64,000 bases of DNA, taken from NCBI GenBank assembly GCA_951406725.2, contig OX597822.1, positions 11,904,001-11,968,000 of the forward strand. The letters run 5' to 3'. This document shows positions 17,881 to 36,768 of the stretch, piece after piece (positions within the stretch are counted from its first letter, which is position 1; each line of letters opens with the position of its first letter). Below the pieces are notes generated by a model, which was not told the DNA's origin, did no database searches, and worked only from the letters and a program-made list of their open reading frames with translations. This DNA is from Octopus vulgaris (taxonomy: Eukaryota). A program made the translations under genes and the position numbers.

Positions 17881-18808
17881 ATAAATATCCCATTCTAAAT
17901 TGTCACCCATCTCGTCTTCATGACTGTTCAAGGAAAGGAAGGGAATGCGCTGAAGAAGATGGGCTTCTCGATCACGTGTCATATGATCAGTTTTCAATAT
18001 CCAAAAAGAAAAAAAAACAAATAAAATGTCCATAAGAGGTGTAGAAAAAACTCTGGATGACACAAGCCCTTGAGAGAGTTTACTTTTTGTTAGGTTGTCA
18101 CAAAACCAGAAGTCGTCAATTAGATACGAATCCTGTTCTTGAACGGTGGTGGACGCGGCGATGGTGGTGGATTCGCCGCACGAACCACTGGACTCCTATG
18201 TCATTAGGATCATGAAAGCTTTCAAAATTGTCACTCGGTAGCAAACAGGAAAATAGTCTCTGATCTGTAGAAACGTGAGAATCTTGATCCTCAGATGCGC
18301 TACTTCGTAGTGCAATAACGTATACGATCTTTAATTCTCCAAAGGACTTGTAAAAAGCTGTAGAGACAAGGAAGTTTAAACAACAGCCACAATAGCAGCA
18401 GTAACATCGGCAGAACAACATGGCAAATCTATTGACAGTTGTCATATCTGACAATAGAACGAGAGGGGACAATAAATATCGCGTGTCCGGTTCCACTGCT
18501 TACAACAAAATATCTCATCTCAGATTCTGAAAATTGAGATTTAAAGTGACTCTTTCAATTCGTCTTCAAATATATTTACATTTATTTGTCTTCCATTCGA
18601 TAATTCTCAACATTCACTTGTCCAAACACACTTCCTTTGTCTCTCCTTCTCTCTCTCACTCTCTGTCTCTCATTCCTTGTCACAGCCATTCTTTCTGTCT
18701 CTCTCACACAATCTTTGTCTCTCTACTAGCATCACTTTCTCAATCCCTCTCTTTCGCTCTCTGTCCCATGCACATTATCAGTAGGTATATTTATATATAC
18801 CTACATAC

Positions 18809-18963
<155 letters not shown>

Positions 18964-19159
18964 TATATATATATATATATATATGTATATGTATGTGTAT
19001 ATTTAAAGGGCTAAGAACCATTATGTGGACAGCCATATGCTAGAAGTAGATCACCTACGATCAAACTACAAAGAGAGAATGTTCTCTAGAGAAAAATTCA
19101 GCGGACACCAGAACAATATGCGGGCAAGACAGAAGAAAGTTATATAAAAACCAAGAATT

Positions 19160-19236
19160 AATCGCAAACCGGTTTCGTCTATTAACGAATAAATCACTTA
19201 CGTAATCCTTCGTCCGTAGGACTCGTCAGTACGATC
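19160..19236 (-). ncRNA. Type I hammerhead ribozyme
   Basis: Minus strand: GAUCGUA-CUGACGA-[GUC..acgaa-ggauuac-GUAA-gugauuu-auucgu..GAC]-GAAA-CCGG-UU/UGCGAUU. Stem I is 7 bp and stem III is palindromic. Confidence 0.85.
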
Positions 19237-19437
19237 GTTCCAAAAGAAATATAATTTGTAAAACTAACCACCAGTTTTCCGTATAAAAACAGACACCTGC
19301 TTAGTTCCACCGATTACATTGGGGTTAATTTCAAAAGTATTAGAATTTTCTCTGATTTTTCAGATTTTTGTATGCTAGGCTACTGCTTTTAAATTGATAT
19401 TAATTAAATCAATATTCAATATATCTCCCTCTTTATT

Positions 19438-19498
<61 letters not shown>

Positions 19499-19624
19499 AT
19501 ATGTATATATATATATATATATATATGAATTTATATATATATATATATGTATGTATATATAGATACATATAAATATATATATATAAATGTATATATATAT
19601 ACATATATATATGAATTTATATTT

Positions 19625-22600
19625 TTTTATTTATTTTATTTATTTTATTTTATTTTATCTAGTTTCAGCTCACGAGCTGTGGCCATGCTGGGGCACCGCC
19701 ATTTGGTGTTGCTACGTGATTTTACTTCACGAATGCCTTTTAGCAACTGCCATTTGGTGCATGAGAGAGTTCGATGCAGCTGGCCTCATCTGCACCTCCT
19801 GCCGTGAAGTTGGTTCATCCGGGACACCTGACAGGAAGAGATCCAGTCCTACATTACAGACATCCGCATTCACCCCAAGCAGGTCCCTCAGGTTCTTCGG
19901 GAGGATATCGAAGAGCTGTGGGCCTCTGAAGCCCAGGCTATCACAGTATCTTGTCCTACATCTTGATGGCAAATTTGGAGTCCTTGGCACCACGCAGTGC
20001 CGCCTAGTTCTGGCATTTGTGTAACTCTCGATGCCAAAGTTTGGGACAAGTCCCTCCAGGATCCTCCAGATGTATATTATCGCATATCTTTCTCGCCTAC
20101 GCTCCAAGAAATAGAGTTATAATCTCTTGAGTCTTTCCCAGTAGCTTATATGCTGCACAGAGGCTATCTTATTCGTGTAGTTTCGTTGGATCGCCTCAAA
20201 TTCTGTGATCAACTTGACACTGGATGGTGACCATAGCTGAGAGCAATAGTCAAAGTGGCTTAGGACAAGTGTCCTCCAGAGGACCATCATGGTTTCTTGT
20301 TCTAAATGTTCTAAGAATCCATCCGGCCAGCCGTCTACATTTCATTACCAATTTAGCAACATGGGATTGCAATCCCTCCAGGTCCAGTGTATTGCATTTA
20401 GTTTTGCATGCTGATAGCATAAAGCTTGAAGCTTTTCAGCATTGAACTGCATGCTATTCTTTTCAGCCCACTTGTATATTTTGTCCAGCTCACATTGCAG
20501 GTGCTTAGTGTCTTCAGGGTTTTGTATTGTGTGTGAAACTTTTGTATCATCTGCATAACCTGTGATCGCGGCTCTCCGCGCGGCCGAGGGCAAGTCCGAA
20601 AGGGCCACCATGAACAGCAGTGGTCCCAAAACAGCGCCCTACGGAACACCGCTCGCTATTTACTACCACCTGACTTCTATCCTTCAGAAAGTCATGAAGC
20701 CATTCTCTCAATCCTCCAACCATGCCAAAATAACGCAGTTTGTATCATTCCATGATCGACTTTATCAAAGGCCTTTGCAAAGTCGAGATATATCACTTCC
20801 ACATTTGAGGGGTTGAGCAGTCGTTTCCGCCACCCAGTCATAGTGTTGTAGGAGCTGAGTTAAGCAGCTTCTTCCTGGTCGGAAACCATGTTGAGTGTCA
20901 GGCAGCATGTCATTTTCTTCAAGGAAGGTGATTAGTTTCCTTCTGACTATTCGTTCCGTGACCTTGCTGATGTGCGAGACCAGAGAGATAGGTCTGCAGT
21001 TCTTGGCCTCCGCTCCGATACCTCCTTTATTAATAGGGCATATTTTACCTTCCTTCAGTTTTCTTCGAAGTTTGCCAGTTGCAAGGAAGCTCTGAAAGAG
21101 GAACTGCAGTGGTCTTGCTAGGACTCTCTTACATACTTTTAGAAGGATTGCCGGGAATCTATCGGGGCCAGTAACTGAGTTAGTTTTCATCTATAGCCTT
21201 TATTACATCGTCTTCCTTTATATTGATATAATCAATCATCGCTGCCTCTGATTTTATATCTGCAGTGATAAAGAAGTCAGTTGGATTGCTGATTTGGAAA
21301 TGCCCAAGGGGGGGGAGTGAAAACACTCTTGAATTGCTCATTTAGTATTTCACTTACCCTCATTGGATTTCCTGTGAGTGTGCCATCCTTTTCAAGGAGT
21401 GGCTCTATCCTACAGTGCACCGTAGCTGTTTCTTTGGCATACCTGTAGAAAGCTCTGGGGTTAGATTTTATGTTGTCTATATATTTTATGTTTTCTATAG
21501 CCCAGCCTTCTTTGTCTGATCTTTCCTTTTCATGGGAGAGTTGCAGATATTTTTCAATTTCCAACAGTTTTATTTTCAGGCGGGACTTTTCACTGCTTTC
21601 AATTTGTTTGTTTAGGCAATTTGAAACTTTTGTACGCCGTCTCATTAGAATTTTCCTCTCTCTGGGGATTTTGTTCTTGTGTACAGTGGCCTTTCTCTCT
21701 GGGACACATATGTAGCATATGGCTTGCATTACAGACATGAATTGTTGAAGTTTCATGTCGATGTCTGGCGACGAGAGACATTCAGGCCAGTTTTGTTTGA
21801 GGATATCTTTCTCAATTTGTTTCCAGTTTACCTTATGGAAGTTCAAGCTGGAAAGATTCTGAGAGTTTCTTGTAGGCTGCATGTCCATGCTTTCCTTTGG
21901 CCCGTACATGGTCAGCTCTACCATGTTGTGATCCGAGAGTAGTGTCGGTGTCATTAACACATTATGGATGAGATCCATATTATTTGTGAAGCAGAGATCC
22001 AGTATGTTACCTGCCCTGGTTGGTTGGAGAATTACTTGCTCCATGTACAGGGTGTTGATGAGGTTCAGGAGGGACCTCACCTGTACTCGTTCACATCGTG
22101 TCATTCCTGGGAGAGAAAGGCCCTCGGGCCATCTGACATTGGGTAGATTGAAGTCTCCCATAAGAAGTACACTTATGTGTTGTTCTAATGTGACTAGAAC
22201 TTCTTCTATTTTTATAAGGCAGTCTTCAAACTTGCCTCCATGGCTTGGGGTATCTGGAGGGCGATATGTAGCACACACAACTACACCAAGTTGCCTTATA
22301 TGTACAATTAGTGCGTCACACACCGAGTTTGAGTATGACAAAAGGACCTGTGATGTGATGTCCTCACGGATGTACATAGCAACTCCTCCATGATTCGTTT
22401 CTTTTTTGTCGGTCCGTAGTACACCATACTGTGGTATGTGTAATTCCGCATCTGCTATGTCTGGTTTCAGGTGTGTTTCCGTAAGTGCTATGCATAAGGC
22501 TTGATTGCATGCAACAAAGTCGCTCAAGAACGGGATTTTGGTCCTATTACTGAGTGTTAGCAGTCCTCTGATGTTCAGTAGGAGCATCGAGGTGAGGTGC

Positions 22601-22637
22601 ATGCTGTTGCCGGCGGTGTCCACCTTGGGTCTAGTTG

Positions 22638-22640
<3 letters not shown>
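19625..22640 (-). mobile_element. CR1-group LINE (APE endonuclease + RT), truncated just upstream of ORF2, with an intact 3' tail
   Basis: APE motifs LLNIRGL, LTETHL, GGVAMYI, YRPP, MGDFN and LSDH. RT motifs RPISLVSHISK, QHGFRPGRSC and YADDTK. 3' tail ggcggtgccccagcatggcc..ctgaaact(aaaat)n. Confidence 0.92.
19727..22602 (-). pseudogene. ORF2 (APE-RT) of the CR1-group LINE, disrupted by frameshifts and deletions
   Basis: Likely start MHLTSMLLLNIRG at 22602. The pieces are ORFs 21277-22956, 20765-21190, 20345-20629 and 19727-20107. One frameshift falls at the G-run near 21310. Confidence 0.85.
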
Positions 22641-22686
<46 letters not shown>

Positions 22687-22689
<3 letters not shown>

Positions 22690-22844
22690 GAGCGGCTGTG
22701 TGGTAAGAAGTTTGTTTCCCAACCACATGGATCCGGGTTCAGTCCCACTGTATGGCACTTTGGGCAAGTGTCTTCTACTATAGCCTTGGGCCAATGAGTG
22801 GATTGGGTAGACGGAAACTGGAAAAAGCCTGTCGTATGTGTGTG

Positions 22845-22875
<31 letters not shown>

Positions 22876-23085
22876 TTGTGTGTCTGTGTCCTCCAAACAT
22901 CCATTCACAACCGATGATGGTGGGTTTACGTCCCTGTAACTTAGGGTTTTCGGCAAAAGAGAACCGATAGCCTAAGTACTAAGCTTACACAGAATAAATT
23001 CTGGGGTCGATTCGTTCGACTAAAGGCGTTGGTCCAGAATGGCCACAGTCAAATAACTGAAACAAATTTTAAAAGAATGAAAGAA
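22687..23085 (+). mobile_element. Family A SINE
   Basis: caggagcggctgtgtggtaagaag..ccgggttcagtcccactg..tttgggcaagtgtc..tggccacagtcaaataactgaaac. Confidence 0.85.
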
Positions 23086-23914
23086 TACACATAGATCAAA
23101 GGGTGCAGGTGTGGGAGTGAGACAAAGATGGAGATGGGGTGTATATGCGTGTGTTTCTATTTGTGTGGATGTGAGTGCGAATGTAAGGCCTCCTACAACA
23201 TTGAAGGTAACAACTAAAGGAGTGTGTGGAAATGTATCGTTGAAATTATGATACAAAGCGACGTGAAATTCTGTCTTAAGAATATGCGATTACTCCTCAT
23301 TGCTACTCGGAGTAACAAAAGAGAGAAATAACAGCAACACAAGTATGCATGTATGTATATATGTATGTATGTCTCTCACACACATAAACTTGTATATAAA
23401 TAAAATCATATATATTAAAACAGTTCAAGGTGCTTACGAGAAAGAGGCTCTTTAAGATGGGTTTCCAGGTTTCTGTGGCGGAGGTATTTCGCTCGGAACA
23501 TGATGTCGTCGCAGGATTCTTCGATTTTAGCAACCGTGTTCAATGGCGTCTATGCTCAAAAGCAAAACGCATCGCTCGGTCCACGAATCGAAACAGCGAT
23601 TTTGCGATCATCTTTACAGAGCTCTAACGAAAATAAAACAAGTTTCTACACGTGTACATATACACACATAAACACAGTCACGCACGCGCACATACACTCA
23701 CACATATACACACATACACACAGACACACACATACACACATGCACACACACACATGCATATATATGTGTGTGTATAGAAGCACACACACATATATATCAA
23801 CATTATCTAGCTATCTATTTATATATATATGTATATATATATATATAGATATATACACATATACACTCACAAATATATATATATGTATATGTATACATAT
23901 ATATATGTTTGTGT

Positions 23915-23952
<38 letters not shown>

Positions 23953-23959
23953 GCGTGCG

Positions 23960-24168
23960 TTTGAGAGTGAATATTTGTGTCTGTGTTTGTCTCCACACAA
24001 TCGCTTGGTGTGATTGATGTTGGTGTGTTTACGTCCCGCAAAGTAGCAGTTCGGCGAAAGAGACCGATAGAATAAGTACAAAGCCTACAAAGACTAAGAC
24101 TTGGTGTCGATTTGTAAGGACGCAGTAAAAATGTCTGAATCAGGTAAAAGAGTAAAAGAATAAAGTAA
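23960..24168 (+). mobile_element. 3' half of a family A SINE
   Basis: ggtgtgtttacgtccc..gttcggcgaaagagaccgatagaataagtac, followed by the tail taaaagagtaaaagaataaa. Confidence 0.7.
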
Positions 24169-24188
24169 TATATATAGGCAAATGTATC

Positions 24189-24260
<72 letters not shown>

Positions 24261-24430
24261 ATTTAAGTAGTTGAATGAATTATCCTAGTATGGATAATTC
24301 GGTAAACCGATACCCGGGTAGCAAATTTACGTCAGAAAGCACGGTTGAAGCTACATGCCAAGGGCAGAAATCACGTGTTGAGAATAAAGGAATTTTATTA
24401 AATCGTCGTTCGACTCCATTCTTTCATTTA

Positions 24431-24472
<42 letters not shown>

Positions 24473-24484
24473 CTAGCAGCATAG

Positions 24485-24500
24485 CCCGGCGTTGCCCGGG
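24485..24500 (-). terminator. Helitron 3' subterminal hairpin (transposition termination signal)
   Basis: GC-rich stem-loop cccgg-gcaacg-ccggg, 8 nt upstream of the terminal CTAG. Confidence 0.85.
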
Positions 24501-24594
24501 TATGTAAGAGCCCCTAGTAGGCAACGACTAATCCCAATGTAGTCCTTTCCCTCCAGGGAACGAAGGTGCATGTGGACGTTGCAATGTCTTGTCT

Positions 24595-27500
24595 TCACTG
24601 GAATACTTCTGTATATACGATGTTCCTAGCTGTCCGTTTGGGCGAAAACATGAAAACATCATTGCGCCTCCCAACGCGTGAACAGCCCACGTAGAGTTGA
24701 CCGTGGGCGAAGCACTGTTCGCCCAAATGTAACCCAGCGACTTGTAGCGTTTGGCCTTGGGATTTATTGATGGACATTGCGAAGCAGAGTTTAACAGGAA
24801 ACTGAGAAAGCCTGAAGTGGATTGGTAGGTCAGCGCCCGACGGTTGAAGGTGCATCCGTGGAATGAAGACGTCCTCTCCCTTCCCACAACCGGTAAGTAT
24901 TGTGGCCGTTATTAAATGTGGTGCCAAATGTTTCACAACCAAACGTGTGCCGTTGCACTGTTTAGGTGGAACCAAATTCCTGATGAGCATAATGGGCGCA
25001 CCGACTTTTAACTTCAGGATGTGTGGTGGCAGGCCTGGCGGTTCAAGTGAATTCAGGAATTCAACAGGATAATCGGCAAGCTGGGCGGGGTCTGCTGTCC
25101 TATCTATAGATTTGTAGACGTGGACATCACAGGAATAGCTTCAAGTAGCTGGATATTGATGGAGTTGACGGTTGTATTTTTGGGTGCGAGAATAGCTCTG
25201 TCTGCCAGCCATTTTAGGTCGCGTAAATTGTTTTGTAGGTCGTGGAAGACAGCGTCCCGGAGGCTAGCAGGTGTGTCGACAATGGTGCAAAGTGAGTCCA
25301 ATTGAACGTAGCCATCCGCATCAGACAGCATCCTATTTTCACCGAGCGATAAGAGGTCCCTGGAGAATGCAGCGGATCCGCTGTCACCAATTAACTGCGC
25401 GCGCATGTTAGTTTGGAGGTGCAAGGGCCGCACATGTGCCCAAAGAGCTGACGACTTAAGGCACGCGCGCACGGCATCGGCATGGGTTCCTTTTGGAATA
25501 ACAGGTAGAGTCTGCCTGAAGTCTCCTGAAAGAAGTAAAGTTAATCCTCCCATGGGGGCCGTAGAGTCTCTGATGTCTTGCAGGGACCTGTCCAGTGCCT
25601 CAAGGGCGCCTTTGTGTGCCATAGTGCACTCGTCCCATACGATGAGTTTGCATCTGCGCAGAATGTCGGCCTGTTCTGAGTTCTTGGCGATGTTGCAGAT
25701 AGGTGACTCGGACTTTGCCAGATCGAGCGGGAGTCTGAAGGCAGAGTGGGCGGTTCTGCCACCCGGAAGCAACGTGGCCGCGATACCAGAGGAAGCTACA
25801 GCCAGGGCAATGTCCGTGTTGCGTCTGACCTCTGCCAGAATTAGTTTAGTGACGAAGGTTTTGCCAGTGCCGCCGGGTGCATCAAGGAAGAAAATCCCCC
25901 CACGTTGCTGTCTGACAGAGTCTACGATGGTGTTGTAGGCTATGCGCTGGTCTGGAAGCAGCCGTGGTTCATTATCTTGGACGTACTGGTGCAGTTCCTC
26001 AATGCAGTAGGAAGTTTCGCGTAACAATTCAGCAGACATAACATTGGCGTGTTCACGTGTGGGTGGTGGAAGGCCGTACTCTGTTAAAGCAGACCCACCC
26101 ATATCGATGACAGCGTCTTCGAGTTGAATGAGCGCAAAATTGTAAATGAAGTTGGTGAACGTGATCTCGGCGGAAGGGCAGTGTTGCTGAGCCGTACGTA
26201 AGAAGTCGTGCGACATGTCATCCCTGTATTCCATCCAGAGACTTAGTGGATCACTAAGCTGACATTTTTGAATAAGGATTGCGAAAAGATGTCGTAGGGC
26301 CGAATGCGTTTGCAGTAAAGCACCCTCTGCCATCGTGGCGTCCCACTGGGAGTCATCCTCTAGAAGGCCAAGTCTCATACATGCTTCCCTGAAGGTGTCG
26401 CACAGAACCCCATTGACGGTACGTATATTGCCGAAACCTGTTGGACCAGTGACCTCATGTAGAAGGAGACGGAGGTAGAAGCATTCTTGCTGGTTTGGCG
26501 GGATGTTGTAAACTCGACCCAGGCAGGAGTCAAACTTGACGCCTGGGAAGCTTTCGACGTTTTTGCCGGATTTCCGTCGAACCCAGGTGTTTTTAGACCA
26601 CACGAAGTACGATGGGACCTGTGGGTACAAAAGCGTTCGAGCGAAGTCATCACGTTGGCATAATTTGAAGAAACCAGTCAACGTTGTGTCTTTAGGGCTG
26701 GTGGCTATCTGCACAGCACTTTGCTCTGTGAAGTAAATCCGCTGTCCATTTTCCAAGTGTACAGCAAGCTGCACCACAGCCGGGTGTCTCTGATGGAGCG
26801 GGAAGCCGTAAATGCGCCAAAACGCTTCGTTGCTGCCGAGGTACCGGCCAGCCAAGTAGTTGGACACTTCGTCGCGACTGGTGGTCCTCTGGATGCTGAA
26901 CATGGCAGCATCGCTGCCTTTGTTGATATATTTGCAGACATATTGTATTGACCTGATGGAGCTGCAGAACTCAACGTTGACGTGGGCTTTGAATATCTTC
27001 GACAGGAGAGGACAGTAGGGGACAATGTAGCTGTTGTCCACTTGATGTCGCCCAACCGTAATCGTGCGGCCTCCATTGGCTGGACTCCTTCGTTTGTACA
27101 GCGGATACCCATCACCGCCTGTTTGAGTCTCCAAAGTGAACCGTTTAGGGAATCCCTTTGAGCAGGCTAATCCGTTTTTGTAGCATGGTGTGTTGGCGTA
27201 ATTTGGTCCACAGGGCCCGTGTACCATGGTAGTGCGGACAATTTCGTAGAGTCCGGGGTCCTCATCGGGGTCAGGAATCTCGGCGGAAATGAATTTGTCA
27301 ATGTCATTAGTCTCGATTTTATGAGTGAGCCAAATTAAGATGTGAGCATGTGGCAAGCCCCTCTTTTGCCACTCGACCGAAAACATGTGGCACCTGACAT
27401 GCCCGAAAATCTGACCCTTAACTATCAAATCCTTCATTTTGCCCAAATTCAGACGGAAAACCCTAGCAACGATGTCGTGTCGATGGGTGTGAGATTGACC

Positions 27501-29454
27501 CGGGAGTGATTTCGTCGCAGCTGGGATTGCACGTGTAGGTGATAAAGAGGTCCGGCCGGCCGTAAATGCGCACGTAGGTCAAGGCGTCTTGGGTCCTTTC
27601 ACGCATATATCGCGGTCCTCCCGTGAAGGTGGAGGGTAGAATGCATGGCTTGCCGATGTTGCGAGGGTCATTTTCTTGTTGCAAACCGTCACGGAGATGA
27701 ATGTAGGAGTCGGAGCGAAGTTTGGTCTGATTAAGTTTAATGTATAGCAGCCTTTCCGATTCCATTTTTGCGGCCATGTCGACGGCGAACTGGTTGAATA
27801 GCTGACGACAACGGGGCAATAAGTTGAACTCACCCTCTCTGACCATGAACCGGTATGAGTAGAACGCCCTGCAGGAAACCGTCTTTGATGCCGCAGTAGT
27901 TTGATTGGAGGGCTGCCGTAAAGGAATTCCGAAGTGGTAGCCGTCTTCCCCATAAGGGAAAAGCAATGGATACTGAAGCGCGTCATAAGATCTGTGAGTC
28001 TCGCTGATACTGTGTAGGTTGTTACCACGGGAGGAGATGATTATGTCACGGCTGTTGTGTTGCTCTCCGTGTATAACTGCGGCAATTTCGTTGCACGCAG
28101 GTGCGTTGAAACGGCGTTCGTGCTCCCCGTAGGGTCGTTTATCAGCATCAATGACAACGGTGAAGTTTGGAGATGGAGCACTGTCCAAGGCATATCTGAA
28201 GCTGCAGACGTAGCTGTTGATATCATGAAGCATGGTTTGGAGTCGGAGAAGAATGTCTTTGCGAGGAACATAGCTTGTACCCGGTATTATTCCAAGGCGT
28301 GCATCAACCTGGTGGTTGTAGTCGGCAATGAAGTATATTTGGAGGAAAGAAGACTGCTGAATCTCGTCTGGCAGAAGTGACCCAATAAGATGGTAGACCT
28401 GTCCCTGCACTTTGAAAGTAGGCATCCAGCCTTCTCTGGGAGGAATTTTGGCCCCGAAAGAGGTCATTTGGAATGAGCAGTTGTACTTTCGAATTATTTC
28501 AAGGAATTGTGACGAATCGGGGGTTAAACCCGCCGCGAGATCCTTCAGTGGTTGAGGTGGTTCCCGTAGGGGTGGCAGGTCCACTTTGCCACCAGAGCAG
28601 CACAAACCAGGTGGCTCTCCGGGCCATTTCTTGGCTTTGCAAAACTGGCATACAATTGTCATTGACCCTATCTTGATGTCGTCACGCAAGGAGAAGTTAA
28701 TTGTGGCGTCGTAGTTGAATGCTAGTGACAACCAGAAAGCGTGGGCAGGGGTACGTACACCACGAATGATATCTCGACGTTTGTTGATACTCTCAAGTCG
28801 AGTGCACCGTGCCTCAGCAGATTCAGATGCACGTGCGACAGCGGTAGCAGTGGCATCCCTTGAAAGCCTTTCAGCTCTCGCCTCAGCACCCTCTGAAGCC
28901 CTAGCAGAAGCAGTGTTAATGGCATGTCTGGATGTCCGAATAGTCCGTTGGTGTGGAGTTTCGGCAGATCGAGCCCTGGCTGTGTTTGCGGCGTTAGCAG
29001 CTTGGCGAGCTCTCCTCTGTTTAGGTGTTTCGGCAGCTTTGGCCATGGCTTTGTTTGCGGCGTCAGCATCTTGGCGAGTTCTCCTCTGCTGTGAGGTTTC
29101 GACAGATCGTGTCCTGGCAGTGCTAGTGGCGTTAGCCGCATTCCGAATGGCCCTTTGTTCGGGGTTCTCGCGAGCTCTGCGGATGGAAGCACAGTAAGAA
29201 GCCCGCATGTTTTGGCTGGACTGTTGCTCTTTCGTCAACCTCGAGCGGAGGGAAGATCTGTACGCTGCGACCCTTGCAAGTCGGGTAGAACGGTCGCTAG
29301 TAGTTTCAGATGCCTGAGCAGCGGCATAACGGGAAGCTGTTTGCGAGAGGCGCAAGGCGGTTTCCTCGTGGGTCTCGCGTGCCCTTCTAGCCCTAGCAGC
29401 CGATGCCTTGGCCGTCCGAGGGCTGAGGAGGGTCCTTCTCTTCTTGGGTGGCAT
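24595..29454 (-). pseudogene. Helitron Rep/helicase (HUH endonuclease + PIF1-family helicase), ~1600 aa, two frameshifts
   Basis: Start MPPKKRR (NLS-like). Zn motif CQFC..CC. Rep motifs PDLFITYTCNP, VEWQKRGLPHAHIL and YVCKYINK. Helicase motifs [27 protein letters not shown] and [11 protein letters not shown]. Frameshifts at ~27507 and ~25130. Confidence 0.93.
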
Positions 29455-30616
29455 TTTGGTGGATAGCAATGTGTTTGGCAAAGGTGTAATAAAAAGGAAC
29501 ACGTGGGGTAAGTATTTTGGTGGATAGCAATGTGTTTGGTAAAGGTGTAATAAAAAGGAGCTCGTGGGGTAAGTATCCGAAAATGTATAAAAATGTACAA
29601 AAACGGCCAAAAAGCTGGCAGCAATGTGAGTGACAACAACGAAAAAGTCAAAAGTGATCAAACTGAACAAACGAAAGGAAAAGTTGTTTGATGCACACGA
29701 CAAAAGTGGTTTATAATAAACCAAGAGTTTGCAAGTAGCGTCCGAGGACCGTTAGGGTACGTCAAAAATTGAAGGTAAAACGTTTGGGGTGGTAGTTATA
29801 AAGAAAGTTTAAACCAAAAAAGTATTCGAATAACTTGCGGCTGCAGCAGCTATTAGCAGAAGTGGCGGTGTTGGGGATAAAGTCTCGAATGTAATTTCTT
29901 CCTGGTAGGAATTGGTTGGATCGAATTATCGATAGCTAAAAAGGTCAAGTTGCGTCCCCTAGACAGTCTGGTTTGTGTTTAATACACAAATTTGTTTGCT
30001 ATGTGTGCCACATATGATTAAATTAACCGATTTTTTCCAATAATGTATCCTATTGGAATAAAAAGGGCTATATAGCACCTTGGAGCAGACATGATGCTCG
30101 TTGTGAAAAAAAAAAAGATTCCTGCCAATTTGTGAAAGATATTGTCGAAAATATGTCATCTTGAATTTGAACGCGATTTCCCAAAATGGCATGATTTTAT
30201 CGATTGTTTCTGATGGTAAGGTATTGCATGGAAAACTAACGTCAGAATTGAGTTTCTTAGGGTAACATTAAGCTTCACCATGAGTTTGGTGAAAATCGAT
30301 TGCAAGTTGTGAAAACTACCATAGATAATGCGTTGCATAAAAAAGCTTAGATTCTCGAGTTGCGTCCCCTAGACAGTCTGTGGTTCATGTTTATGATTCT
30401 CGACCCCATGTCGAATTTATCAATTTTTTTCAGAACTGGGGGAACTTTTCAAAATTTTCGCTGCGTTAGTTTTGAATTATGACATTGGGCTATGTGTGTG
30501 TCAAGTTTCATCAGAATCGGTTGAAAGCCGTGGTCAGGGTGAGGGTACGAGAAAACAGACACACAGAAGCACGCACAGACAAACTGCCGTTTATATATAG
30601 AGAGATATATATATAA

Positions 30617-31562
30617 ATCCTTAAATCCTTAAAAATGTTTTAGCCCGAAGGCCGCGGCCATGCTGGGGCACCACCGCTGAATGAGCCACACTAGTTTGTG
30701 AATCCACCTCTGATACGTGGCACTTGATCAACAAGGAGTTCGATGCTGCTGCCCGCATCCGTGTCTCCTGTCGTGAGGTAGGTTCATCTGGGACTCCCAA
30801 CAAGAAGAGATCCAGTTTAGTTTTAAAGAAACCCACATCCACACCATGTAAGTCTCTCAGGCATTTAGGGAGGATGTTGAAAAGCTGTGGTCCTCTGAAA
30901 CCCAAGCTGTTGCAGTATCTGGACCTGTATTTTGATGGTGATGTTGGAATCCTTGGCACCACGCAGCGGCGCCCCGTTCTGCGGTTGGAGTAACTTTGAA
31001 TGCCAAAGTTTGGGACAAGACCCTCCAGGATTTTCCAGATGTATATTACTGCATATCTCTTCCGCCTCCGCTCCAGGGAGAAGAGGTTTAATACCTTCAG
31101 TCTTTCCCAGTAGCTGACATTTTGCATTGAGACGATTTTCTTTGTGTAGCTTCTCTGAGTTGCTTCGAGTTCTGCTGTTTGTTTTATATTGTGTGGTGAC
31201 CAAAGTTGGGAGCAGTAGTCCAAGCGGCTGAGGACAAATGTTTTCCATAGGACCATCAGTGTCTCCTTCTCTCTTGTTCTGAAAGTTCGGAGAATCCATC
31301 CAGCTAGCCGTCTGCATTTTATCACCAGATTAGCAATATGCATTTGGAAAGATGCATCATTGCTCATGTCAATGCCCAGGTCACGCACTGATTTTGACTC
31401 AGGGATTGCAATTCTTCCTGGGCCAGTGTATCCAGTCTTCACGTCATTTACCTTTGTGTACCAGTAGCGCAGGGCCTGGAACTTACCTGCATTAAACTGC
31501 ATGTTGTTGTCCTCAGCCCACCTGTATATTGTGTCCAGCTCATGTTGCAGATGCGCAATATT
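30617..31562 (-). mobile_element. 5'-truncated CR1-group LINE (RT C-terminus), a different subfamily from 19625-22640
   Basis: LQHELDTIYRWAEDNNMQFNAGK, VRDLGI, SRLDYCSQLWSP and SLERRR..GFRGPQLFN. 3' tail ggtggtgccccagcatggccgcggccttcgggct. Confidence 0.9.
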
Positions 31563-31795
31563 TTCATGTACATATATCATGCATATATGTAAACATATAT
31601 ATTCTCTGCGCGTGTGTGAATGTATTTTAACTTTGTAGATATGTTCGCCTATTTGTCTGTTAAAAGGTAACATAATGCACGACACAATATGCTACCAGCG
31701 AGGCAACATAATGGATGTTTGTATATTTGAGTTGGAGTGAAATGATAACGTATAGGAGAATACCTTTGTAAATGGAGTCATGCACACCCATACGG

Positions 31796-31862
<67 letters not shown>

Positions 31863-31941
31863 GATATATATATACATATATATGTGGTCGAAACGTATCT
31901 AAGTAAGTATTTACATATATATATATGTATATATATATGTA

Positions 31942-31990
<49 letters not shown>

Positions 31991-32118
31991 TGTATATATG
32001 TCTGTCTGTATATATATATATATATATATATATGTCAACTATCTTTCTTTTTCAACAATTATGACGTTAAGGGTATCTATATATCTATCTTTGTATCTCG
32101 CTCTCTCTCTCTCTCTCT

Positions 32119-32155
<37 letters not shown>

Positions 32156-32485
32156 TACATATCCATATATATACTTATATATATGTACACACAGACCCCC
32201 ACACACCAAACACATATATACGTAAATGCATGTACGATATATATTCCCTTGTACGGACACATAAATATGTACATGGAAATATCTCAAATATATCTACACA
32301 CAGAAAAAATTTCATATACATATTTAACATCTTCACTATATGAGTGTGTGTTTCTCTGTGTGTGTTTGTGTGTGTGTGTGTTTGTGCCCGTGTGCGTGTA
32401 CATATATATATATATATATATATACATTCTTACATACACACATATATACACACAGGGAGACACACACTCACACAATATATATGTA

Positions 32486-32558
<73 letters not shown>

Positions 32559-32911
32559 GTATATATATACAGATACAGCTATATATATATATATATTATT
32601 CATATATATACTTACGTGTATGTATATATTCAGATATTCCTATATATACGTTGTTCGTGTATTTTCTGTTCACCCTGTGCCAACAATTCTACCATTAATC
32701 TCATTGTCTCGTAGAATCAGTCCATTCTTAATTGGTTGATTCTACAAAGTCTTCTCTCCGACCTCAAGTCACGTAATATACTCACTATAAAATAATACAA
32801 AATTTGCTTTTAACGTATACAAGGTACTTTTGGCACATATATGCATGTACATACATAAATATATAAGTCTGTATGTATATATATAGGTGTATATATAAAT
32901 GTATGTATATG

Positions 32912-32946
<35 letters not shown>

Positions 32947-33287
32947 ATGTACTTATATATATATATATATATAAATGTATATATATATATATATACATTT
33001 ATATATATATATATATACACATACATATATCCATTTATGTCTCTCTCTATACATATATGCATATATACATATACACACGTGTGTGTCTGTTTATGTGTTT
33101 TCTTACATAGTTCATAATTCATCTTTACGTATTTGTGCGTGTACGAGCTATATGTCTATCATCTATATGTGCTTCTCTCTCTTCGTTTCTCTTTCTCACT
33201 TAATGTATATATATATATATATATATATATACTCATATGCATACATATCACTATATCTATCTATCCATACATACATATATATATGTC

Positions 33288-33358
<71 letters not shown>

Positions 33359-33407
33359 AGACAGACACACATACATATGCGCACACACACATATTTGTAT
33401 ATATATG

Positions 33408-33438
<31 letters not shown>

Positions 33439-33690
33439 CTGTGTTTGTGCGTGTGTGCGTGTGTGTGCATGTATATGTTTCTGTATATATGTTCTCTATT
33501 CACGCACATCCAGGGATGTCGCTCTCTTTGCGTACTTGTGCTATATTTTATGAATGCAATCCTCTGACAGTATAGGAATTTTCAGCTAATTACAAATAAC
33601 TGCATATATGACATTTAATTAATTCAAACATGCATATATGCATATACATGTGTATATACGTATACGCAGATATATACACGTATCCAACTA

Positions 33691-33740
<50 letters not shown>

Positions 33741-33834
33741 CTTAGAGACAAAACCACTATTATGCAAATCAAACAAAGAAAGACTTAATCCAATACATAA
33801 AAAATTTTATATAAATTAAATAAAATTAAGCTAT

Positions 33835-33880
33835 CCACTACAATTGTTTCCTGTCACTTCTAAGGACATTCATCAGGTGG
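33835..33880 (-). ncRNA. Minimal type I hammerhead ribozyme
   Basis: Minus strand: CCAC-CUGAUGA-[aUGUC-cuuagaagu-GACAg]-GAAA-CAAUUG-UA/GUGG. The closing pair of stem II is mismatched (A.G). Confidence 0.8.
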
Positions 33881-33919
33881 TTTCAAGACCTTCTATTCAA
33901 TTTTAAATAATGAAATATT

Positions 33920-34319
33920 TAAATGACAGCCTCAACTTGGCGGACAGATGCCTCATCAATGGCAGAAGAGGGGCCACCAGATCTGGGAGCTGTTTCCACA
34001 GAGTTCCGACCATGTTTGAATTCACGATTTACAAGGCCATATGATGGGGCATCATCACCATAAGTTACTCCTCATTTCATCAAAAGTCTCCCGTGGTGTG
34101 CGTCCTTTCAAATACAAAAACCGGATCACTGCTCGACACTCAACAGGCTCCATTTCACACTTAACTCAGTTCAAACACCTATAAATCAGAAACCACAATT
34201 ATTTCAGAGCTGTAATTTGCCACTTAATCTATAGAGATATAAATAATTAAACATGCAAAATTTCAACTAGATCAAACAATTGTAAGTGGGTCAGGGGCAT
34301 TACTTATTGAACGTCCCTT

Positions 34320-34322
<3 letters not shown>
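33920..34322 (-). mobile_element. 5' fragment of a mariner transposon (TIR + transposase N-terminus)
   Basis: ATG at 34153 gives MEPVECRAVIRFLYLKGRTPRETFDEM..TYGDDAPSY..EFKHGRNSVETAPRSG. TIR-like gcaagggacgttcaataagtaatgcccc at ~34294-34321. Confidence 0.8.
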
Positions 34323-34393
<71 letters not shown>

Positions 34394-34945
34394 TATGTGT
34401 ATGCGTTTGTATTTGTTCATGTAAATTTACACATATATAACTATATGTATGAGTATATGCGTGTATATAGTTATGAACATTTATAAATATGTACTGCTCT
34501 TCTGTTTTTAAAAATGTACGGATTTAGCGAAATATACACTAATTAATTCTGAAAGAAATAACTTATTTTCAACCTAGAACTGTAGGATGATAACCCCAAG
34601 AGAGACTTTGCAATCCTTGAAATTGTTTTAGAGCGACGATCCAGAAATACGGAGAAAAAGGAACAGCGACGGACACGCATACGCATCTATACACACAGAT
34701 ACACACTCGTGGTTATATTAAAGCAACGCCATAGGAAGAAGAAAGCAATGACATACTTATTAGAAATACCAAAGAAACTCACAAATATAAAATTAAAAAT
34801 ATTAATATGAAACACTGTTAAATATAAGAGATGCGAAAAGAAGGAGAAAGAAAGTTGGTTCAATCGAAGAAATATATTTTGAAAATAATGTTTATCAACA
34901 TTGGAAGTCTCCATAAAAAAAGATGTTGCTGCTTCTGATGAAAAT

Positions 34946-35572
<627 letters not shown>

Positions 35573-35779
35573 GTAAATTATAAGAGCAGTAAATTGAATG
35601 GTTGGTAATAGCTCACAGTTGTCTATAGAAAGTTTAATAGACGGACACACGCATATACACACACACACAGCCACACACACATATGCAGAAAGACGCAAAA
35701 TCATATACGAAAACCTATTTTTATATATATAGAATATAATATAATACAGAATAATAATTTTACACACACACACACACAC

Positions 35780-35836
<57 letters not shown>

Positions 35837-36768
35837 ACATATCAGCTGATCAATAGGTAGAGAAATAATATGAAGTTCTTTCCTTAGCGCTGCTGCCTAG
35901 TAATTACATTACCAAAGTCTGAATAGCTTTTAAAGTCAGCATCTATCTGGTTCCATTTTGGGATTTGATGCTGTTATTAACATTTTTATATTCAAACTTT
36001 GTTGTGCTTTAAAATGTTCTCGATTTATTTTGGGGGAATGTTTTACATTTTCCATCTCACCTACTCACGTAGCTTGATATGTGTGTGCGCGTGTGTGTGT
36101 GTGTTAGTGTGTGCACGGGCGAATATGTGTATGTATATGTATGTATGTATGTATGTATGTATCTATATATCTATCTACCTACCTACCTATCTATCTATCT
36201 AGTTATCTATCTGTCTATTTATCTGTATGTATATATATATGTATTTATCTATATGTATATATATGTATATATATATATATGTATATACATATATATATAT
36301 ATATATACATACATATATATATACATATATACACACATACATATATATATACATACTTGTGTTTGCGTGTGTACATATCTATGTATACATATATATGTAT
36401 ATGTATGTATGAATATGCATATCTATATATACGTATGTATGTACATATGCATATATATATATATATATATATATAAATATACGTATGCCAACACCCAGAT
36501 AAACACACACACATACACACACACACACTCTCACACACACACTCACATACACACTCACACACACACTCATACACACAAATATATTCTCTGTGTGTATATA
36601 TTCTCTCTGTCTCTTTTCATATAAATTCCTATATGTATATGTGTGTATGTGTGTGTTCGTGTGAGTGTCTGTGTGTACGCATAAATATCTATATTTATGC
36701 ATCTGTAAATATATGTAAATCCTAATATGCACATATGTTGTATAATTACATATATATGAACCTGTGTC

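Follow-up and report, generated by a model that had tools for sequence, protein, structure and literature searches.

A nine-repeat STPR array heads the transposase of a young Octopus vulgaris Helitron and is a probable low-specificity anchor on duplex DNA

We found that the transposase (RepHel) of a Helitron family in Octopus vulgaris begins with nine in-register STPR repeats of 23 residues each. The copy that we describe lies in the 64,000-nt stretch of DNA analysed here (the window) and belongs to a young and abundant family of canonical Helitrons. By analogy with the silkworm protein FMBP-1, the array probably acts as a low-specificity anchor that holds the RepHel of this many-copy element on double-stranded DNA.

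The repeats occupy a single uninterrupted interval:

28756..29376, minus strand: nine 23-residue STPR repeats, protein residues 27-233 (translation, profile, periodicity and model)

A sequence-only reading of this DNA had listed nine such repeats at the N-terminus of the RepHel. All nine strings are present letter for letter in the minus-strand open reading frame at 27463..29751, the first of them starting at residue 27, and the interval 29376..28756 measures 621 nt, which is exactly nine units of 23 residues with no indel. Translation of the plus strand over 28756-29376 gave no such repeats. The signature that had been described also holds, with E1 in 8/9 repeats, T/S2 in 7/9 and R9 in 8/9; repeat 3 is the deviant (L1 and Q9). 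Glu1, Thr/Ser2 and Arg9 are the residues conserved in each STPR unit (PMC4856987). Other register positions are similarly constant, namely R6 (7/9), A/S14 (8/9) and R/K21 (8/9). The in-register column score was 83 at a period of 23, versus 36-47 at the other periods tested (18-29), and none of 20,000 shuffles reached this value (42.1 +/- 3.2, maximum 57). The Pfam profile PF21107 (STPRs), which has a gathering cut-off of 27 bits, matched the window copy at E 1.2e-14 and 54.9 bits and an intact copy at 51.2 bits. In the PDB, residues 1-233 had a single sequence match, FMBP-1 (5d23_A; E 0.002), gap-free and in register. Based on the family profile and the defining residues, these are STPR repeats, as had been proposed. 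The array has a net charge of +21 and a pI of 11.6, with 37 Arg in 207 residues. At the DNA level, the 69-nt tandem repeat is recognisable in repeats 5-7 only, and because it has decayed outside these units we regard the array as old and retained.

An AlphaFold2 model of the array, made without DNA, had a mean pLDDT of 93.1 and contained nine 20-residue helices exactly 23 residues apart, the first at 29-48, the second at 52-71 and the last at 213-232; the breaks between them are three residues long, at positions 23-1-2. The unit of the Bombyx mori domain (BmSTPR) is a 2-residue linker plus a 21-residue helix (PMC4856987), and the predicted octopus unit matches it. A Foldseek search of the model against the PDB gave no match at E <= 0.001, an extended helical zig-zag being a poor query.

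The likeness to the STPR of FMBP-1 (PF21107; PDB 5d23, 5d2q, 5d2s; PMC4856987) extends to the strict 23-residue unit, residues E1, T/S2, R6 and R9, a short linker plus a helix of ~20 residues per unit (in octopus, as predicted), a strongly basic composition and the in-register sequence match. The two differ in number, nine repeats versus four (other proteins have three to seven; PMC4856987), and in setting: the FMBP-1 repeats are part of a transcription factor, whereas the octopus array is attached to a transposase. They also differ in the residues expected to touch DNA. BmSTPR contacts DNA through R6, R9, L10, Y16 and R20, and through M13, S14, A17 and L21 (PMC4856987). The octopus array keeps the phosphate-binding arginines R6 and R9, as well as A/S14, at the frequencies given above. 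The thymine-methyl and phosphate contacts are mostly absent (L10 in 4/9 repeats, Y16 in 1/9, R20 in 1/9), as is M13, and in place of R20-L21 the basic residue has shifted to position 21 in 8/9 repeats. Arginines 14 and 16, typical of the clade, are largely lost (basic in 0/9 and 2/9). BmSTPR recognises AT-rich DNA by shape (PMC4856987); since its contacts and the clade's R14 and R16 are mostly lost, this AT preference is not simply transferable to the octopus array.

The array heads a transposase gene that is real but broken in the window copy, by an 11-nt deletion (~27504) and a 1-nt deletion (~25131):

29434..29454, minus strand: start codon and basic MPPKKRR motif (likely nuclear localisation signal); first in-frame ATG, with no Met upstream in the open frame
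28582..28650, minus strand: Cys-rich zinc-finger-like motif CQFC...CC of the conserved Helitron N-terminal domain, aligning to the Helraiser N-terminal domain (7lcc_A)
27463..29751, minus strand: first open piece of the broken gene (ORF), with the array, the N-terminal domain and the beginning of Helitron_like_N
27503..27504, minus strand: site of the 11-nt deletion, a frameshift within the Rep domain (versus copy L014; public-run contigs)
25104..27578, minus strand: second open piece (ORF, profile matches), with the remaining Helitron_like_N and the PIF1 helicase
27330-27350, minus strand: HUH motif HAHILIW, in the second open piece
within 25857-25883, minus strand: Walker A motif GGTGKT of the PIF1 helicase, in the second open piece
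25129..25131, minus strand: site of the 1-nt deletion that truncates the helicase (versus L014; public-run contigs)
24595..25128, minus strand: third piece, the helicase C-terminus in a different frame, up to the family's usual TGA stop at 24595-24597 (versus the intact L014 ORF)

The missing 11 nt are present in contigs of 3/4 public runs, and the base missing near 25131 is present in 4/4. These contigs span the whole element and show internal-deletion forms; they have no bearing on transcription. The fusion of array and RepHel is real because other genomic copies, L014 and L015, have intact ORFs of 1623 aa in which STPR, Helitron_like_N, PIF1 and Pif1_2B follow in order. The array is therefore in frame with an HUH-nuclease/PIF1-helicase protein, as the sequence-only reading had it. 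The intact RepHel scored 175.6 bits for Helitron_like_N, 213.5 bits for PIF1 and 56 bits for Pif1_2B, and a domain search of it found no DUF6570, OTU or Exo_endo_phos.

The element itself is a canonical Helitron with complete anatomy:

24473..30605, minus strand: complete copy, 6133 bp (alignment to three further genomic copies with differing flanks)
30604..30605, minus strand: 5' terminal TC, the beginning of TCTCTCTATATATAAACGG, joined to a flanking A (A|TC in 30/30 independent 5' junctions)
24473..24476, minus strand: 3' terminal CTAG, joined to a flanking T (CTAG|T in 30/30 3' junctions)
24485..24500, minus strand: subterminal GC hairpin CCCGG-GCAACG-CCGGG, 5-bp stem and 6-nt loop (direct sequence reading)
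30606..30615, no strand: (TA)5 adjoining the 5' end, flank outside the element (sequence reading)
24449..24472, no strand: (TA)12 adjoining the 3' end, followed by (GA)9, flank outside the element (sequence reading)
29453..29576, minus strand: two tandem 61-bp units adjoining the start codon, in the 5' UTR or promoter region (TRF; present in the window copy, L014 and L015)

The features of canonical Helitrons (HLE1) are all found here: (i) 5' TC and 3' CTRR ends without inverted repeats; (ii) a short hairpin ~10-12 nt upstream of the 3' end; (iii) insertion between A and T, at every junction counted above; and (iv) a RepHel that joins an HUH Rep (Helitron_like_N) to a PIF1-type helicase. The last base of the hairpin lies 12 nt upstream of the final base of the element, with 8 nt between the hairpin and CTAG. 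The termini, TCTCTC... at 30605 and ...CTAG at 24473, are common to other copies, and no target-site duplication was seen in 12 paired flanks. This copy does sit in (TA)n, as had been noticed, between (TA)5 and (TA)12. It is 99.4% identical to the intact-ORF copy L014, from which it differs by 19 mismatches and 5 indels. Searching the genome with the array gave at least 170 matches, many of them 99-100% identical, and an initial look gave 880 candidate 5'-end sites.

Helraiser, the reconstructed bat Helibat1 transposase (PDB 7lcc; PMC4778049), shares the 5' TC, the 3' CTAG, the subterminal hairpin and the A|T target. Unlike the octopus RepHel, it has no described STPR array. Octopus residues 213-506 align to Helraiser residues 75-386, so that the last repeat alone falls inside the alignment; the HMMER envelope extends to Helraiser residue 9. 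The N-terminal region of Helraiser is needed for DNA binding (PMC4778049).

An STPR front end is widespread among related animal Helitrons. For comparison we took the 120 nearest full-length RepHel relatives, which are 51-59% identical. At least four in-register repeats directly follow an MPPKR start in 44 of them, mostly from residue 24-27, versus 1/120 for a control region (aa 351-700). The array-bearing relatives come from insects, arachnids, molluscs, nematodes, rotifers and a flatworm; the relatives retrieved from octopus species either have arrays or are truncated models. An MPPK(R/K) start is common to many relatives in other phyla. R21, a residue outside our selection criteria, is conserved at 92% in the 266 repeats of the 44 relatives. 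When 17 arrays (29-46% identity) were aligned, the columns conserved at 90% or more fell only at STPR position 1 (in three columns), position 9 and position 14. The octopus array is ~43% identical to its nearest (cuttlefish) relatives, and the adjoining domain is much better conserved. Repeat number varies, as had been supposed, from 4 to 14 among Helitron and Helentron proteins; most relatives carry 4-5, which places the nine of the octopus family at the high end. A word-indexed protein search with residues 1-260 against proteins of 892-2841 aa returned no match at E <= 0.001, low-complexity words having probably swamped it; a HMMER search of representative proteins did recover relatives.

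The suspicion that related repeats may already be annotated in other Helitrons was borne out: 20/120 relatives already carry the PF21107 label in the same ORF as RepHel, and HELIANO (2024) lists STPRs as a Helitron domain (PMC11417382). The STPR-Helitron fusion is not new, and the octopus family joins the known STPR-bearing Helitrons. Annotated HLE1 examples are P0116 (Nucella lapillus, 1631 aa), P0178 and P0169 (Cordylochernes scorpioides), P0107 (Centruroides vittatus), P0167 (Ancylostoma caninum) and P0005 (Acanthosepion pharaonis); the octopus RepHel resembles STPR-bearing HLE1 Helitrons in its MPPK(R/K) start, an array from about residue 26, the Cys-rich N-terminal domain, Helitron_like_N and PIF1. 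HELIANO counts STPRs with the domains that are "encoded in different ORFs" from RepHel (PMC11417382), whereas in the octopus family and the 20 labelled database proteins the array and RepHel share one ORF. Helentron (HLE2-type) proteins can likewise have an N-terminal 23-aa array, of 7-12 units, before a rolling-circle Rep-helicase. They differ from the octopus RepHel in carrying DUF6570, OTU or endonuclease domains, as in P0025 (Branchiostoma floridae: STPR, DUF6570, Helitron_like_N, PIF1, endonuclease) and P0006 (STPR, DUF6570, OTU, Rep, PIF1). Because HELIANO gives STPRs as almost exclusive to HLE1 (PMC11417382), these Helentrons are exceptions.

Within the octopus family, the residues of the array evolve about neutrally. 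The dN/dS of the array was 1.22-1.58, versus 0.27-0.35 for Rep. Nonsynonymous and synonymous changes (N:S) numbered 63:16 among shared changes and 121:37 among singletons, where the neutral expectation is 2.85; CpG transitions make up 38/184 N changes, and in dead copies the loss of CpG from Arg codons pushes dN upward. Such near-neutral evolution also fits a part of little importance. Among 26 distinct arrays, the minimum number of changes per register position ranged from 3 to 11 across nearly all 23 positions, and the TALE-like pattern of a few hypervariable positions on a fixed scaffold was absent. Of 35 sampled copies, 29 keep the full 621 nt without an indel; two others aligned partly, two have in-frame deletions and two have 1-nt indels. 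A class of array matches covering positions 1-135 looked like a six-repeat variant, but its member L076 proved to be a 99% copy of full length whose array carries a frameshift.

We propose that the nine basic helices would lie in a zig-zag along the major groove of duplex DNA, each repeat spanning ~4 bp and the whole array up to ~36 bp. The anchor would keep the nuclease-helicase on AT-rich double-stranded DNA, close either to the ends of the element or to the target, and the A|T site would be chosen by the Rep domain itself. We infer helical DNA binding from homology to the Bombyx FMBP-1 STPR, whose complexes with DNA have been solved; low sequence specificity is suggested by the within-family dN/dS, the about-neutral N:S and the reading of AT-rich DNA by shape in BmSTPR. 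The arm thus likely helps the transposase to grip double-stranded DNA rather than to read a base-by-base code. Helitron chemistry acts on single-stranded DNA. We count this against a duplex anchor, along with the lost BmSTPR contacts, the near-neutral evolution, the Foldseek result, the DNA-free model and the mapping of Helraiser DNA binding to the N-terminal region as a whole (489 residues) and not to repeats (PMC4778049).

The array might instead recognise AT-rich repeats such as (TA)n or (TATC)n and steer insertion into or beside such tracts, its residues perhaps specifying bases. The nine best 4-bp repeat ligands of BmSTPR include (atat), (tata), (tatc) and (atac) (PMC4856987, Table 1). 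(TA)3 adjoins 10/30 5' flanks and 17/30 3' flanks, versus 16-20% of all A|T sites in microsatellite-rich octopus DNA, and several insertions coincide exactly with the left boundary of a (TA)n tract. On the 5' side, however, the excess is gone once the local TA|TA preference is accounted for (10/13 with (TA)3 given TATA|, versus a 76% baseline), although on the 3' side it persists given a local TA (17/22 versus 35-39%). With this number of flanks, the difference between the two sides is too weak to support a claim. Among 12 elements with both flanks seen, (TA)3 is on both sides in one, the window copy, and on neither in six. Furthermore, Helraiser, with no described STPR array, already prefers AT-rich DNA within ~20 bp of the insert, most strongly on its 3' side (PMC4778049), and (TA)n could have expanded after insertion. 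These tests do not support the suggested steering to (TA)n, since the enrichment is modest and a local TA|TA preference accounts for most of it, nor do they support the suggested repeat-to-base code, since the arrays vary at nearly all positions with about-neutral N:S. We consider a targeting arm unlikely, and it is just as doubtful that the arm reads AT-rich repeated DNA 3' of the insertion point at ~4 bp per helix, biasing landing to (TA)n edges, with repeat number and residues tuning insertion.

Slightly less probable is a basic tail with a role other than DNA recognition, which might bring the transposase into the nucleus or nucleolus and retain it there, tether it to chromatin, bind RNA or let the transposase associate with itself. 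The MPPKKRR start, the arginine-rich 207-residue tract that follows and the retention of charge and helical periodicity with little constraint on residue identity are consistent with it, but the strict 23-residue register and the keeping of E1, R9 and R21 across phyla exceed the needs of a charge tract, and the sole solved relative binds DNA. Least probable is a functionless in-frame coding minisatellite, kept open only for translation of the downstream RepHel: the dN/dS above 1, the about-neutral N:S in shared and private changes, the fluid repeat number and the near-identical repeats of some relatives would suit it, but the array stands at the same place in 44 relatives of several phyla with structural residues >90% conserved, most sampled copies keep all of it, and its DNA-level repeat has decayed as in an old, retained array.

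A low-specificity duplex anchor therefore remains our preferred reading. The practical gains from the window are modest. It provides a clean and young example with nine repeats, and the same genome also contains intact sister copies. The same-ORF array corrects the printed statement that STPRs lie in an ORF separate from RepHel, and the tests of (TA)n steering, being negative, call for caution over the idea of targeting. More broadly, an STPR arm heads a large share of animal Helitron transposases (44/120 nearest relatives). If this arm does bind duplex DNA, it would add a second module for DNA contact to the N-terminal domain, which in Helraiser is known to bind single strands, and it might influence donor-end recognition or target choice.

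The repeats stand at the front of a RepHel transposase encoded by a Helitron on the minus strand, whose bounds were set by alignment to three genomic copies with unrelated flanks.

Features of the window Helitron
24473-30605, minus strand: Helitron copy, 6133 bp
5' end: starts TCTCTCTATATATAAACGG, directly after flanking A
3' end: ...CCCGG-GCAACG-CCGGG-CTATGCTG-CTAG, then flanking T
29454, minus strand: protein start at the first in-frame ATG, MPPKKRR

The hairpin ends 12 nt upstream of the terminal base. Junctions (slash) read A/TC at 30/30 independent 5' ends and CTAG/T at 30/30 3' ends, with no target duplication among the 12 elements in which both flanks were seen. The window copy is dead. 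Against L014, a sister copy elsewhere in the genome, 11 nt are missing near 27504 and 1 nt near 25131, and 19 further bases differ; the missing bases were found in contigs of public runs. Downstream of the array are a Cys-rich zinc-finger-like motif, Helitron_like_N with an HUH motif, and a PIF1 helicase. L014 and a second sister copy, L015, have intact ORFs of 1623 aa each, ordered as STPRs, Helitron_like_N (531-711), PIF1 (1170-1358), and Pif1_2B, and contain no DUF6570, OTU, or endonuclease. These ORFs establish that the array is truly fused to the HUH nuclease-helicase, as the sequence-only reading had held, and their domain set makes the element a canonical (HLE1) Helitron. Two tandem 61-bp units, 95% alike, occupy window positions 29453-29576 (minus strand), and the pair recurs at L014 2751-2874 and L015 7907-8030. 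In 3/3 copies examined, the end of the pair coincides exactly with the start codon of the transposase; the pair may be a promoter or 5'-UTR element that was duplicated in this Helitron family.

Plus-strand translation of 28756-29376 gave nothing of note. The minus-strand stop-to-stop frame 27463..29751 includes all nine repeat strings, unchanged from those quoted in the sequence-only reading. The array spans exactly 29376..28756 on the minus strand (621 nt, 9 x 23 aa) and begins at residue 27 of the protein. Compared in register, the repeats have E1 in 8/9, T/S2 in 7/9, R6 in 7/9, R9 in 8/9, a small residue at position 14 in 8/9, and a basic residue at position 21 in 8/9; repeat 3, with L1 and Q9, is the deviant unit. 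The 23-residue period is unique: column conservation scored 83 at period 23 versus 36-47 across periods 18-29, and shuffled arrays scored 42.1 +/- 3.2, with 0/20,000 as high as 83. A 69-nt tandem repeat is detectable at the DNA level in units 5-7 only, which indicates that the array is old, not freshly amplified.

The identity of the repeats as STPR, and their fusion to RepHel, is near certain. The profile search proposed in the sequence-only reading gave a match above the gathering score of 27 for Pfam STPRs (PF21107), with 54.9 bits (E 1.2e-14) for the window copy and 51.2 bits for an intact sister copy. Residues 1-233 had a sole match among all PDB sequences, Bombyx FMBP-1 (5d23_A, E 0.002), aligned without gaps and with repeats in register; the name first given to the repeats was correct. 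An AlphaFold2 model of the array from a 17-sequence alignment (mean pLDDT 93.1) consists of nine helices of 20 residues; each begins at position 3 of its repeat, and successive helices are offset by exactly 23 residues, leaving breaks of 3. The predicted unit is the same linker-plus-helix unit described for BmSTPR, the STPR domain of FMBP-1 (PMC4856987). Foldseek of the model against the PDB returned no match.

We think that the array probably acts as a low-specificity duplex-DNA anchor. It is strongly basic (net +21, pI 11.6), and would form a basic helical zig-zag in which the STPR scaffold and two phosphate-binding arginines are kept; homology suggests a span of ~4 bp for each helix and about 36 bp for the nine repeats. 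The thymine-contact residues reported for BmSTPR (PMC4856987) are mostly lost from the window array, as are the clade-typical R14 and R16 of Helitron STPR repeats. The anchor reading rests on these features together.

A sequence-preferring targeting arm is an unlikely alternative to such an anchor. The sequence-only reading had raised steering to (TA)n, and the window copy does lie between (TA)5 and (TA)12, but steering by the array found no specific support. (TA)3 or longer makes up 8% of window sequence beyond the element and 4% of far-flank sequence, and TATATA stands immediately 5' of 16-20% of all A/T sites. The surroundings (18000-36000) are dense in (TA)n, (TG)n, (TCTA)n, and (GA)n microsatellites (e.g., (TCTA)n at 34946-35530 and (TA)n at 32837-33353), so the chance baseline for sitting in (TA)n is high. 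TATATA adjoins 10/30 5' junctions and 17/30 3' junctions, two of the latter 30 flanks being one duplicated locus; T at -2 in 22/30 and A at +2 in 22/30 give a TA/TA core. This short core accounts for the 5' excess, since 5' flanks with TATA at the junction extend to TATATA in 10/13 cases versus a 76% baseline. On the 3' side TATATA continuation occurs in 17/22 versus 35-39%, and part of the excess therefore remains. Among the 12 elements with both flanks seen, (TA)3 was on both sides in 1, on one side in 5, and on neither in 6. At L014 7866-9901, one intact copy is embedded in >2 kb of (TA)n (>1000 units, 99% match), a tract far longer than those next to other copies. Helraiser, the reconstructed bat Helibat1 transposase, is not known to carry an STPR array; it likewise favours AT-rich surroundings out to about 20 bp, with the strongest bias 3' of the insert (PMC4778049). 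Hence, the (TA)n setting is typical of Helitrons and does not specifically favour steering by the array, which may still contribute on the 3' side. When Helraiser (7lcc_A) is aligned to L014 residues 1-509, the alignment starts in the last STPR repeat (query 213 = Helraiser 75); its HMMER envelope extends to Helraiser residue 9, so the first ~90 residues of Helraiser may correspond to a degenerate array.

It is quite doubtful that the array is a basic tail with a non-DNA role. Register and structural residues persist across species: conservation of at least 90% in the 17-sequence alignment (29-46% identity) is confined to columns at STPR positions 1 (three columns), 9, and 14. Within the family, the diverged copies L077-L079 compared with the intact ORF gave dN/dS of 1.28, 1.58, and 1.22 in the array, versus 0.36-0.70 in the adjoining N-terminal domain, 0.27-0.35 in Rep, and 0.11-0.32 in the helicase. 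Among 28 distinct array DNAs (out of 35 copies), N:S was 63:16 for changes common to at least two sequences and 121:37 for singletons (neutral expectation 2.85:1; Fisher p 0.62). CpG transitions make up 38/184 N changes, so decay of Arg codons somewhat inflates array dN. These near-neutral values indicate that residue identity is barely constrained within the family. Minimum changes numbered 3-6 at register positions 1, 2, 4, 5, 16, 22, and 23 and 7-11 elsewhere, and no hypervariable position pair stood out. A functionless coding minisatellite is the least probable reading; all 621 nt are without indel in 29/35 copies, the remaining six comprising two partly aligned, two with in-frame deletions (6 and 9 nt), and two with 1-nt indels.

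The array has at least 170 genomic matches, many 99-100% identical, with stop-to-stop open frames of up to 1744 aa. First-look candidates numbered 880 for the 5' end and 247 for the 3' end; 40/40 scored were 100% identical in each case. Copies matching residues 1-135 only were considered as a shorter array and rejected, as they share a frameshift inside the array. This set includes L076 (C10:63486800-63494800) and about 17 further places, near-identical and full-length, with matches ending at residue 135 and frames of 277 aa. A defective copy has thus multiplied, presumably mobilized in trans or by segmental duplication. In public contigs, sequence from about 29833-30119 also runs directly into about 24514-24553 or 25168; such internally deleted forms lack the entire ORF and retain just the ends. 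Word depth in public runs is tens to hundreds of times higher at the 5' end than in the interior. For Octopus vulgaris, a repeat survey from 2026 reports 8 Helitron families with 178 recently active insertions (PMC13282606).

An HMMER search with residues 1-233 against 1.84 billion representatives (E <= 0.001) found 75 proteins (best E 4e-20), the closest being from Helitrons of the cuttlefish Acanthosepion pharaonis. Proteins of Octopus bimaculoides and O. sinensis are among the RepHel relatives, which come from the Rep-region search described below. By Pfam scan of the 75 array relatives, 44/75 carry STPRs at E <= 0.001 and 13/75 carry Helitron_like_N, PIF1, or DUF6570. They include the Helentron-type proteins P0025 from amphioxus (STPR, DUF6570, Rep, PIF1, endonuclease) and P0006 (with OTU). 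STPR arrays also accompany THAP, with or without OTU, or C2H2 zinc fingers in P0034, P0075, and P0009, which are candidate products of other transposons or of domesticated genes. A 2A-like ribosome-skipping motif, LLLSGDIETNPGP, sits a few to about 20 residues upstream of the arrays in 5/209 proteins examined, all Helentron-type with DUF6570 (P0006, P0018, P0078, P0083, P0089); a literature search combining Helentron with 2A terms gave no mention of Helentron among the matches listed.

Literature pairing STPR with Helitron comprised the HELIANO paper and its preprint only, and STPR with transposition yielded nothing further relevant among the matches listed. HELIANO names 20 domains as stably included in Helitron-like elements; STPRs are one of them, described as almost exclusive to HLE1 and grouped with domains 'encoded in different ORFs' (PMC11417382). 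The latter two statements need qualifying, by the Helentron proteins with STPR and by the in-frame array here, respectively. The Rep region (residues 234-900) found 2933 proteins at E <= 1e-20. As had been anticipated, related repeats are already annotated in other Helitrons, with PF21107 in the precomputed annotation of 20 of the best 120 (scorpion, pseudoscorpion, spider, dog whelk, wasp, leafhopper, blowfly, and hookworm). An in-register finder, counting units with at least two of E1, T/S2, and R9, located at least four units within the first 350 residues in 44/120, mostly from residue 24-27 behind an MPPK(R/K) start, versus 1/120 in control residues 351-700. Repeat number is indeed variable, from 4 to 14 with 4-5 commonest, and R21, which played no part in selection, is 92% conserved in the 266 collected repeats. 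The window array is real and cleanly delimited, a commonplace example of an architecture that is widespread and annotated in databases, and this front end is standard in a large clade of animal Helitrons.
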